64,000 bases of DNA from assembly GCF_963921235.1 (NCBI RefSeq), contig NC_086097.1:33916001-33980000 (forward strand), in the 5' to 3' direction. The position numbers were made by a program, and so were the translations under genes. Source of the stretch: Mobula hypostoma (lineage: Eukaryota). The notes beneath the pieces were generated by a model. That model was not told the DNA's origin, ran no database searches, and saw nothing but the letters and a program-made list of their open reading frames with translations. Shown here piece by piece: positions 7,663 through 47,779 of this stretch (position 1 is the first letter of the stretch; each line of letters opens with the position of its first letter).

Positions 7663-7728
7663 CGTGAGTGCCACGGATCCTAAAAGAAGTATGACAGAAT
7701 AAACAAGGCCTCTGCTGTTGATGCGTAC
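7663..7728 (-). CDS. SLC24A4: SLC24A4 exon (66 nt): VRINSRGLVYSVILLLGSVALT
   Basis: ttttccag|GTA...ACG|gtgagt; phase 0/0; near-identical to the NCKX4 segment. Confidence 0.96.
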
Positions 7729-10999: not shown

Positions 11000-11112
11000 A
11001 AAGGATCCGGTGTTAATAATTATCGTCTGAAGTCCCCATGGAAGACCTAGGCCAACAAGGATATCAAACACGTTGCTTCCGACTGTGTTGGACACGGCCA
11101 TGTCTCCCATTC
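11000..11112 (-). CDS. SLC24A4: SLC24A4 exon (113 nt): (G)[37 protein letters not shown]
   Basis: Acceptor ctataaag|GA, donor TTT|gtaagt; phase 1/0; contains the GSNxFD motif whose Asp confers K+ dependence in NCKX proteins. Confidence 0.96.
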
Positions 11113-19112: not shown

Positions 19113-19227
19113 CTTGTCTGGCAACAATTAAGCTGGCCATGCAATCTGGAACACTTGTTCCTGCTGCCAGAAATGTTATTCCCATGATAATATCTGGAAT
19201 TCCGAGTGTGAACCCTATTACAGTGAC
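19113..19227 (-). CDS. SLC24A4: SLC24A4 exon (115 nt): [38 protein letters not shown](G)
   Basis: gtgcag|GTC...CAAG|gtaagt; phase 0/1; alpha-2 repeat. Confidence 0.97.
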
Positions 19228-43578: not shown

Positions 43579-43731
43579 CTGGTGGAGAAAATGGTGACAG
43601 GAGCTCTGGCTCATTTTCATCCTTGTTGCCATCTTCTTTTGTATTTATGTCCAGAGGAACATTTCCATTTTCGATACCATCACATTTCTCAGCTGCACTG
43701 ATTTCCTTGTCCACACCATTGGCCGATTGAA
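43579..43731 (-). CDS. SLC24A4: SLC24A4 cytoplasmic-loop exon (153 nt): (V)QSANGVDKEISAAEKCDGIENGNVPLDINTKEDGNKDENEPELLSPFSPP
   Basis: Donor CCAG|gtgaga at 43579. The only usable acceptor is gaccag|TT at 43731, because in-frame TAA/TGA lie just upstream; phase 1/1. The 5' boundary is less certain than the 3'. Confidence 0.85.
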
Positions 43732-46643
43732 CTGGTCATTACACAAGAACAAACTGTATGTAAATCCTAGAAAGCTCAAAGGCCAGCGTATAAAACCGGT
43801 GCCTTAGAGAGACTGCATTGCATGATCTCATTATTTTAAGGTGGAAAATAACAAGGATTAGAACACTTTAGAATCACTCAATAATCATATTTAAGTACAA
43901 CACACATCTTTGTAATGAATTTACTACGTAAAGTGGATTTTTCAGAAGCATAAAATGTCACAATGTGCAACTGAACTTACAGATCTTAAACTATCAAGGT
44001 CTTTGTTTTACCTGCACCTCACGGGTTATGGGGAGGAGATGGTAGTGAGGGAACTATTAGCTGTACACTGGAGTTAAAACAAAATCTATATGAACAAAAT
44101 TTAGTGAATAATTTTGATCAAATTTTACATCCCTCAGTTTCATATCACTATTCATTAGTCAGGCTCACAGGTAAAGATAGCAACTTGGTTGATGCAGAAA
44201 GACTCTGTCTATTTTGTTATTTTCTTGTTTCCATATTGAATACGTTTAGATTAGAGAACTGATACATGTAAACCATGGCCTCCCCCATAGACAAGGTATG
44301 ATGGCAGGCCAACAGGGAGCACTGGAGAACACGGTAAAGATCTCCTTCACCAATGAAATCAACTTAATCCCTCCTGATACATCACAAACCTACTCAGGTT
44401 AAAGGAATCTGAATGGAAGCAAATTGAGGGCAGGGATTAGGCTAAAATGTCTAAAGGGTACCTGAGAAAGAAGCCTTTCACCAGTGGGGTGGTTAGCCTG
44501 ACTGGTGCCAGAGACACATAAACTCCCATAACATTTATGTATTGAACCATGCACTTGAGGGCTACAGACCAGGAGAATTAGTATAGACAGATAACTGTTG
44601 GTTGGCATAGATGTGATAGACTGAATTGCTTCTCTCTGTGCTGGATGGCTCAGTGACTGTCACTAAATCCAAGGCTCACTGAACATTGTGCTGCAGAATT
44701 CCCAGGCACATACCCTAAACTTTCCTGGCAGTATGATACCATCTGATCCTACAAAGCACAACAAGGCTCAATAGTTTCCAGCACAGCATTATGGCCTTTC
44801 AACATCTAAACCCTAATTTTGCAGCTGGGCACTGAACTAATTATAACTGCATGATTAATTTTTAAAAACATTAAATCTGAATTTGGAGCTTGATTATTAA
44901 TATTTAATACTTATTCACTTTCCTGTATAATTTGTTTACCTGTAATGGTTGATTCCTTAGCATTTACAGCTTAGAGCCCGCAAAATTTGTTAATAAGTTA
45001 AAAATTATAAATAAAGCTGTCATCAAAACAACAATGATGCATAAATTCATCTATAATCTCACCAGTCTAGCTTAAGATATCAAGCCATTAAGATATTTAC
45101 TAATTTATTTTCTATATTGCTAATGCTATGGTTAGAGAAGCCACATTATCAGCCTTAGCCATTGTAATGAATTAAAGTTGATTACTGTTATTTGTTATTT
45201 ATTGCAGAAAATATTGTTAATTATGAAAAGCATTTAAAAAGACATAACAGTGTTCAGAAGGTTGTTATGGATGATATCAAGAAATAGGAATCACAGTAAG
45301 GCCAAGCAGACAGACGTTTGATAACGGTTAGTGAGGTAGATGGAGAAGAATTTAAAGATATTAATTGGTGTTCAGCAAAGTGAGCAGAATGAACCACAGT
45401 TGAAAACAAATCTTGCTTAACTTTGGAAGACTTCTGAGTCAATTAAAATGGAATTTAGTCATATTTGGAAATGCTTTACAGAGCCATAGTTATTATTTGA
45501 GTCATCTAATGTAGGTTCCTGATGGCCTATGATTTCAATAATTTACTTTGATCATCACTGATAAGTGATGTTATTTGTTGGAGTGTTCTGGAAAGTGTCC
45601 TTTTTGCTGGAAAGTATGGACAATGGACCTGGTCAAATATTTTATGGGGTGGTTGGGGTAGGAGTGGGGAGGAGGATTTTGTCTGCTGGGCAATAATTTA
45701 ACATATTGCTATTACCATATAGGGGAAGGGGAATGTCCTCATCTGGTTCTGACTCTATCTCCCATTTACCTCTCCCCTAATGATCCCTCCTTTACCTATC
45801 CAATTCCATCTCTGGTAGCCCATTGTATTCCTGTTTATTACCTTCCAGCAGCTGTCTCCAACCTTCGTACTCCCTTCCTCTCACTTTGCAACACCCTCCA
45901 CTCATTTTTGCTTTCCTCCATTTATAGTCCCCCAGTCACTTCCTCCTAATTTCACACCCCTCCTCCCACTACCTGATGCAAGCAGTCTGTCATCTTTCCC
46001 TGCTGCTAGTCCACCTCAGGCTCCTGATGCCCCACTCCCCCTCCCTTTTATACTGGCCATCTCCCCTCTCAGTCCTGATGCAAGTTTCTGTCTTCAAACT
46101 TTGCCTATTTCTTCCCCCCTCACAGATGCTGAGTTCCTTCAGCAGGTTCCTGTGGCTCCGGGTTCCAACATCTGGAGTCTCCTGTGCCTCATGCTTCTGC
46201 TATTCACTTAACTTGACAACTGGGTACGTTCTGCATCAGAATTCTACGAAAAGTGGCTTGGAGTGCGTGACTATAAAGCCATGAACATGGCAACATGGAG
46301 ATAAGTCATTGAGGAAACTTGGCTGCATTGGCTGACGCACAGCACACAAGAGCAGGAAGGGAACACTAGAAATGTTTGCAGTAAGATATTGGTTAGTTCA
46401 CATCTGGACTAGTGTGCACAGCTCTAGTCACTACACACTGCAGAAAGTATATGATAATGCTCAGAGGGGCAGAGGTTTACAAAGATATTGCAGGGTGAGG
46501 GAATTACAATTATGATGAGGCCTAGGCAGGGTGGCATTCATGGCTGCCAGTGAAACTGAGGGTAGAATTAATCAAGGTACAAAAATTATGAGAGATCCAG
46601 AGTGATAAATAATATCTATTTAGCAGTAATGTCAGTAACCAGA

Positions 46644-46843
46644 GGCTGTGGAGGCCAAGTCACTGGGTACATTTAAGGAAGAGGTTGATAGATTTTTGAT
46701 TGGTCATGTCATGAAGCGATATGGGGAGAAGCCAGGAGACAGGGGCTGAGAGAAAAATGAATCAGTTATGATGTAATGGCAGAGCAGACACGAGGGGCCA
46801 AATGACCTAATTCTGCTCCTATGTCTTCTGATCTTGTGGTCTT
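46644..46843 (+). mobile_element. Short CR1 3' fragment flanked by 39-bp direct repeats
   Basis: CR1 3' end (gctgtggaggccaagtc...aattctgctcctatgtc) lies between 46605-46643 and 46844-46882. Confidence 0.8.
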
Positions 46844-47633
46844 ATAAATAATATCTATTTAGCAGTAAGATCGGTAACCAGAAGCCACATAAGATGGTTC
46901 CTGAATGAGGATTTGAAGTATTATCTGCAGAACTATGTGCCAAGAGCCCCAGGCAAGACTAACCGAATGTTTATTTCTGGCTGGAGAGGACACATTGGCC
47001 CTGTGCTGTGCCTTAACTTTCTAAATTCCTATGAAAACCAAAATCAAAATTTTCACCATGAGAGATTTTCTTTGTTTAGGGGAATGGGGGGAGTCAAGGT
47101 TGAAGGAATAAACGCCTTCTGCAGTGATCTGATTCAGCTGTGGCACATTCAGCATGCTAGAAGTCACAAGGTGAGTAAGGTCCAAAGATTTCTCCTGGAT
47201 TCATGCTGGGTTACCACATCACATGTGAACAAGTCGTGTTGTCAGTTGAGGAATGGGCAGAGCGGCACTGGCAGAGGTGGAATCACTTTGTGACTGGCAC
47301 CGTCTCCCAGCAGAGCATCTTCAGGATGAAAAAGCAGCAACACTCACAGCCTTCAGCTTCTCAATACAATCATGCCTAGGAATGCTACTGCTCCTGATCG
47401 TGAAAGAAAAAAAAAATGAAACATTAAGCGTTTGATTCAATTTTTCATCGTCAATGAGGCCCCCCCCCAAAAAAACCTGTTTGACAAAGGTCTATTCTAA
47501 AAAAAAATTCTCTAACAATGAAATTGAAAAGCTATTGACAAAAATGCTCAGAAAATTGTTACCGAATTATTAAAGAGATGCTGAGTGGGGATAAAAGATT
47601 TTTACTGGCCATTCTCTGTCTGGTTAGCCTTAC

Positions 47634-47779
47634 CTTGAGATAACAATGGGAGTGACAGATCATCACAACTACTGAGAGAATCAATATTACCATCCTCCAT
47701 CTCGTTGCCGATCACATTGCCATTTGCCACATCCTTCATCAGCTTGCTCACAAAATAGCTCTGCATCTTGTTATTAAAC
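47634..47779 (-). CDS. SLC24A4: SLC24A4 exon (146 nt): (K)FNNKMQSYFVSKLMKDVANGNVIGNEMEDGNIDSLSSCDDLSLPLLSQ
   Basis: tttgctggcag|G...CAAG|gtaagg; phase 2/1; resembles the start of the NCKX4 large intracellular loop. Confidence 0.9.

Follow-up and report, generated by a model that had tools for sequence, protein, structure and literature searches.

We analyzed a 64-kb stretch of the genome of the ray Mobula hypostoma (C1:33916001-33980000, here called the window), in which the seven 3' coding exons of SLC24A4, the gene for the K-dependent Na/Ca exchanger NCKX4, lie on the minus strand. A cytosolic-loop exon that bony-vertebrate NCKX4 carries is absent from the corresponding intron and was not found elsewhere in this 3.48-Gb genome. 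In all likelihood this exon, together with its calmodulin site, was lost once in the ancestor of cartilaginous fishes, a 13-nt shift of the next splice acceptor kept the reading frame, and the product would be a working exchanger that escapes control through calmodulin and T331. Exon loss combined with an acceptor shift of about 13 nt had been proposed in an earlier, sequence-only reading of this DNA, and the proposal fits every test that we ran.

The nearest proteins to the window gene are ray sequences. Its start codon lies at about C1:34264595, giving a gene length of about 348 kb, and the alpha-1 exons, upstream of the window together with the start, are 97-100% identical to those of Narcine. 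Both alpha-1 and alpha-2 repeats, part of two transmembrane clusters as in SLC24 exchangers, are intact and lie in open exons, as had been inferred for the transport motifs. The 146-nt loop-start exon is bordered by a ...ggcag acceptor and leaves in phase 1 at 47634 with the donor CAA G/gtaagg (slash, splice boundary), just as described before. The 153-nt exon that follows opens with TT CAA after ...gaccag and ends at the donor CCA G/gtgaga. Ten AG sites lie between 43900 and 43700; an open in-frame join came from just one of them, directly preceding 43731, in agreement with the earlier assertion that no other acceptor would serve. Compared with bony-vertebrate NCKX4 the gap is exactly 61 alignment columns, close to the earlier estimate of about 60 residues. 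A second GT donor at 47691, which had gone unmentioned, yields a short form of the loop-start exon (Table 1). The segment that this form omits corresponds to the 19 residues that mouse NCKX4 splices alternatively (PMC7949085), and this alternative segment is retained in cartilaginous fishes.

A profile of the loop segment, built from 94 bony-vertebrate segments (108 proteins carried the motif and 14 could not be cut by pattern), found no match in the intron, where it scored at best -2.1 bits, or in the whole window, where the best score was -5.1 bits. A tblastn search of the intron with the loop segment gave a best expect value (E) of 0.023, on the wrong strand, and five upstream stretches gave a best E of 0.077. 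The statement that the 3.9-kb intron holds no such exon, originally made by eye, was thus borne out by both profile and tblastn. When the bowfin segment was compared with the whole genome, there was one true match (C22, 61% identity, E 1.2e-13), which proved to be the NCKX3 exon, and the remaining four matches had E above 1. Because this search recovers the more distant NCKX3 exon, an intact NCKX4 exon would be detected. Relocation of the exon within the genome was ruled out at this sensitivity, NCKX3 being the sole genome-wide holder of the segment. A second full-length SLC24A4 copy was also ruled out by genome search, in which a stricter first pass makes the gene count a floor. It is very improbable that a collapsed assembly or an annotation error accounts for the missing exon. 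Such an error could hide in an intron assessed from the assembled sequence, but there is no N anywhere in the window, the 3,902-nt intron is free of tandem repeats, stop codons stand in the old exon start, and 22 named species have the same short loop.

The 61-residue segment was missing from every one of 34 cartilaginous-fish NCKX4 proteins, which represent 22 named species (8 batoids, 13 sharks and Callorhinchus) and one additional fragment, and it was present in 108 of 108 bony-vertebrate proteins, one of which is mouse NCKX3. Seventeen of the 34 join the long donor, and 14 the short donor, to VQS; in all, 32 were counted as direct joins to VQS, and two of these are also present under non-RefSeq accessions. 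One chimaera isoform (P0142) has GN between the two sides and joins two residues further on, and the Hemiscyllium entry P0135 carries an odd 20-residue insert at the join. Judged from these predicted proteins, the loss is common to rays, sharks and a chimaera and is not specific to this ray or to batoids. A loss limited to one species was ruled out by the same short loop in the 22 named species. Separately, in the basking shark and white shark proteins (P0127, P0128) three further residues are deleted where the loop begins. 'Exchanger 4-like' is the name given to most of the models from sharks and rays, and 'exchanger 5-like' that of a Stegostoma isoform (P0140); the short loop may lie behind both names.

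In the deer-mouse protein, numbered as in mouse, the gap corresponds to residues 294-354. Calmodulin binding of mouse NCKX4 has been mapped to residues 326-345, with T331 inside this stretch (PMC7949085), so both the site and T331 fall within the missing segment, a point on which the earlier reading had not remarked. We found the loop calmodulin site with T331 neither in the intron or the window nor in any of the 34 proteins. In mouse NCKX4, the double substitution I328D/F334D abolished calmodulin binding and weakened the purinergic response, with transport as in the wild type (PMC7949085). The T312A substitution, which is T331 in the long numbering, halved stimulation by ATP, and the S325 site of the same study would likewise fall in the gap (PMC3867797). 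According to PMC9820825, splice variants of the loop had not yet been the subject of any experiment.

The ray loop comprises 104 or 85 residues, compared with 158 in bowfin and 177 in deer mouse, and has a net charge of -12. Sites of the form (S/T)x(R/K) were absent from the ray and Heptranchias loops, and two were present near the start of the chimaera loop. The transmembrane regions of P0006, the protein closest to the window gene, share 92-96% identity with those of other elasmobranchs and 79-83% with bony-vertebrate NCKX4. The intact alpha repeats and the high transmembrane identity argue for a working gene under selection. By analogy with the mouse mutants, we predict that K-dependent Na/Ca exchange is normal, that calmodulin binding at the loop is absent, and that purinergic stimulation through protein kinase C (PKC) and calcium/calmodulin-dependent protein kinase II (CaMKII), together with the braking of transport, is weak or nil. 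AlphaFold models were too weak and were not used: mean predicted local distance difference test (pLDDT) scores were 37.5 for the ray-type protein and 53.7 for the deer-mouse protein, in which the segment held three low-confidence helices.

The exon that NCKX4 lacks can be seen directly in NCKX3 of the same genome. It is 161 nt long, with the acceptor ...acag/CC (phase 1) and the donor GAG/gt (phase 0), and shares 89% identity with mammalian NCKX3; the exon after it opens cag/AGA CAA AGG CTG, which encodes RQRL. The exon phases that the sequence-only reading had given for NCKX4 (1 in, 0 out, followed by RQRL) are therefore present in this paralog. Among 43 NCKX4-type open reading frames in the database, 37 run from ...I(N/T)E into V, five into RQRL and one into KLVQ; the 37 that pass from E to V fit a phase-0 end at a GT donor in NCKX4 as well. 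The segment is also carried by one hagfish protein and one amphioxus protein, and by a third NCKX3/4-like paralog found in whale shark, bamboo shark, sturgeons and other fish-like entries (P0296, P0313, P0312, P0393, P0344 and P0318; clade support 96.8/98). A genome search with P0313 as the query did not find this third paralog, which may have been lost in this ray. Because NCKX3 of this genome, hagfish and amphioxus all retain the segment, the change in NCKX4 reads as a loss rather than a gain.

Trees were built on 359 transmembrane columns, with the loop excluded. In a tree of 32 rows, the short-loop genes clustered with bony-vertebrate NCKX4, apart from NCKX3, with an ultrafast bootstrap (UFBoot) support of 99. 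A tree with a single distant outgroup left the NCKX4 clade unresolved (supports 29-58); when its two long-branch rows were dropped, the resulting 27-row tree gave an NCKX4 clade that included the short-loop genes, with a support of 99.9/100 (SH-like approximate likelihood-ratio test, SH-aLRT/UFBoot), and it placed both the third paralog and NCKX3 outside. Exons of legumain (PF01650) lie at C1:33688937-33712302 (+), about 204 kb past the 3' end of SLC24A4 and on the opposite strand, as at the human locus, where the order is SLC24A4-RIN3-LGMN. Together, the trees and the legumain neighbor identify the short-loop gene as the SLC24A4/NCKX4 ortholog. We give almost no credence to the alternative in which bony vertebrates gained the exon, with the short loop as the original state or the gene as a different paralog. 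What speaks for it, and so against a loss, is the unresolved tree with the single distant outgroup; the third NCKX3/4-like paralog in sharks and the one shark model named exchanger 5-like also leave it some room. It is largely refuted by the outgroups, since hagfish, amphioxus, NCKX3 and that same third paralog all have the segment, and the two well-supported trees and the legumain neighbor stand against it as well. A single loss in the stem of the cartilaginous fishes, before the chimaera split, is likely from these sequences. That split dates to about 420 million years ago.

As the NCKX3 counterpart exon runs from phase 1 to phase 0, bare loss of the NCKX4 exon would shift the frame. The ancestral NCKX4 exon would have been about 170 nt long (57 residues less one base), also running from phase 1 to phase 0. 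Provided that the Leu codon in RQRL had A in its third position, the AG spanning the Leu and Val codons (CTA G/TT) would have offered a phase-1 acceptor 13 nt inward; removal of 170 + 13 = 183 nt, or 61 codons, would then have restored the frame. The old acceptor and the four orphaned RQRL codons could subsequently have decayed. This proposal accommodates skipping through the cryptic acceptor and deletion of the exon in either order. Hemiscyllium P0135 reads M-Q-Y-L and then V-Q-S, and an exact Q..L was found at 0.5% of control sites. With Leu directly before the acceptor, its codon must end in A. The MQYL reading supports decay of RQRL, as far as a predicted protein can.

Several points weigh against this reading. 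Absence at the DNA level covers this genome only, the other species being represented by automatically predicted proteins, of which the closest, P0006, matches the window nearly letter for letter and is non-independent. Use of the acceptor at 43731 is likely, as a junction predicted from the frame test and database models. A skate-like contig protein, P0002, has spliced upstream exons and reads through the long donor into the intron, which reflects either intron retention or an intronic end. The Hemiscyllium residues stem from one odd, probably mis-spliced model. Upstream of the acceptor, the codons TAA TGA CCA do stand where the sequence-only reading had placed them, each one base away from Q-R-L, but taken alone they are weak evidence: of 4,219 window 12-mers preceding YAG, 390 (9%) are likewise no more than one base from Q, R and L, and by likelihood ratio the stretch ranks only in the top 13-17%. 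As proof alone this resemblance was rejected, being within chance. The functional prediction extrapolates from the mouse protein in HEK293 cells, and calmodulin could bind elsewhere.

The evidence from the 21 other species, as predicted proteins, is also compatible with an exon that persists in some cartilaginous fishes as a rare, unannotated cassette, in which case the loss would be later, repeated or limited to a lineage such as rays. In bony fish, too, the acceptor at the start of the following exon seems to vary: RQRL/RQKL is missing its first two residues in an eel isoform (P0078) and in entry P0377, a sign of alternative acceptors at this position. We nevertheless consider a persisting cassette quite unlikely. 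The segment was present in none of the 34 proteins, with up to four isoforms per species, and a cassette would need the old phase-0 acceptor and an open RQRL, where stop codons stand in this ray and MQYL in Hemiscyllium. The identical shifted start in all of them points instead to a single event.

The 3' third of the lost exon has a possible relic at the start of the present intron, where TRQRMASK compares with TRLRMASR (Table 1). This remnant, 9 nt behind the donor, might be what survived a single deletion that took the 5' two thirds of the exon along with the bulk of the intron upstream of it. The stretch occurs once in the genome. Whether judged by profile, codon model or DNA, nothing else on the sense strand of the intron matches the lost segment as well. 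In P0002 (14 of the initial 16 read-through positions) and Hemiscyllium P0135, the opening ~48 nt of the intron (47633-47585) are well kept, which would agree with this idea. At divergence settings of 0.1, 0.2 and 0.3, its score was reached by 0, 1 and 10 of 30 other window tiles (tiles that contain exons, one of them overlapping the 3' half of the same intron) and by 9, 14 and 64 of 400 shuffles. With a BLOSUM profile, 47 of 300 shuffles were as good, and with DNA, 15 and 51 of 300. Given these counts, and because the match was spotted post hoc, the single-deletion scenario is doubtful, and we treat the relic as a lead only.

We lean, by a small amount, toward a fuller account in which a single event with frame rescue, older than the divergence of chimaeras from sharks and shared by all living cartilaginous fishes, cut a chordate-wide module with calmodulin and PKC sites from NCKX4 and left an exon relic at the start of the intron; NCKX4 would then extrude calcium without feedback, and NCKX3 would keep the module. 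According to PMC7949085 and PMC9820825, the calmodulin/T331 segment is the sole mapped regulatory module of NCKX4, and mouse NCKX4 shapes how smell and cone signals terminate and adapt, as well as enamel maturation. If the account is correct, cells that depend on NCKX4 (in mammals, olfactory neurons, cones and tooth epithelium) would extrude calcium without this feedback. Conservation of the segment extends from amphioxus to mammals, yet one vertebrate class appears to manage without it in NCKX4, so shark NCKX4 would be a natural deletion mutant in which the role of the module can be tested. The locus would also show, in a clean example that can be dated, how a cryptic acceptor rescues the loss of an exon that breaks the frame, and would be a candidate shared derived character of cartilaginous fishes. 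In mainly openly readable papers, without their supplements, we found no published description of the deletion or of shark or ray NCKX4 structure; in the text accessible, PMC6170504 studies NCKX1/2 with human NCKX4 as an outgroup and PMC4684697 merely lists the gene. Exon loss with a splice shift is itself a known type of event.

The remaining coding exons are given in Table 1. Four further SLC24 genes lie at C59:63.4-63.7 Mb, C52:96.4 Mb, C52:79.1 Mb and C22:87.1-87.3 Mb and comprise an NCKX1/2-like pair, an NCKX5-like gene and NCKX3. Mobile-element remnants occupy several introns of the window, all on the minus strand. Two long stop-free frames of 471 and 267 residues lie at 57854-55584, in the upstream intron, and we take them, by eye, to resemble a hAT-type transposase. 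Broken frames at 34846-32088, 53744-52026, 29353-27137 and 4985-3887 presumably derive from endonuclease/reverse transcriptase of the long interspersed nuclear element (LINE) type, and fragments at 17422-17048 and 9511-9050 look to us like the GIY-YIG (Penelope-type) end; both assignments were made by eye.

Table 1. Positions of SLC24A4 features in the window (position 1 is its first nucleotide)
Feature	Position	Strand	Remarks
Loop-start exon (cytosolic loop), long-donor form	47634..47779	-	146 nt; phase 2 in, phase 1 out
Same exon, short form	47691..47779	-	89 nt; donor GAT G/gtaata, 57 nt upstream of long donor
Possible relic, 3' third of lost exon	47601..47624	-	TRQRMASK vs TRLRMASR; intron nt 10-33; borderline vs chance
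Intron, site of the loop exon in bony vertebrates	43732..47633	-	3,902 nt; no match to the exon
Putative former start of next exon (R-Q-R-L + one base)	43732..43744	-	GTG TAA TGA CCA G; now intron end/acceptor
Loop exon with shifted acceptor (predicted)	43579..43731	-	153 nt; phase 1 in, phase 1 out
Exon for loop end and next transmembrane segment	29461..29630	-	170 nt
Exon, alpha-2 repeat, first half	19113..19227	-	intact
Exon, alpha-2 repeat, second half	11000..11112	-	intact
Transmembrane exon	7663..7728	-	66 nt
Final coding exon with stop codon	767..919	-	

Compared with mammalian NCKX4, the ray gene is an ortholog with intact alpha-1 and alpha-2 repeats, the 19-residue alternative segment and about 81-83% transmembrane identity; it differs in a shorter loop without residues 294-354, including the calmodulin site at 326-345 and T331. 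Shark, ray and chimaera models named 'exchanger 4(-like)' already encode this short loop with the same join, so the short protein is present in automatic annotations. Around the loop, NCKX3 (SLC24A3) of the same genome matches SLC24A4 in exon order and phases, but has kept the exon. Close counterparts are also the mouse I328D/F334D and T331A (T312A) mutants, which likewise lack the calmodulin or PKC site, keep transport and show a reduced ATP response (PMC7949085, PMC3867797). Those proteins are point mutants made in the laboratory, whereas in cartilaginous fishes the whole segment appears to be naturally gone, class-wide.

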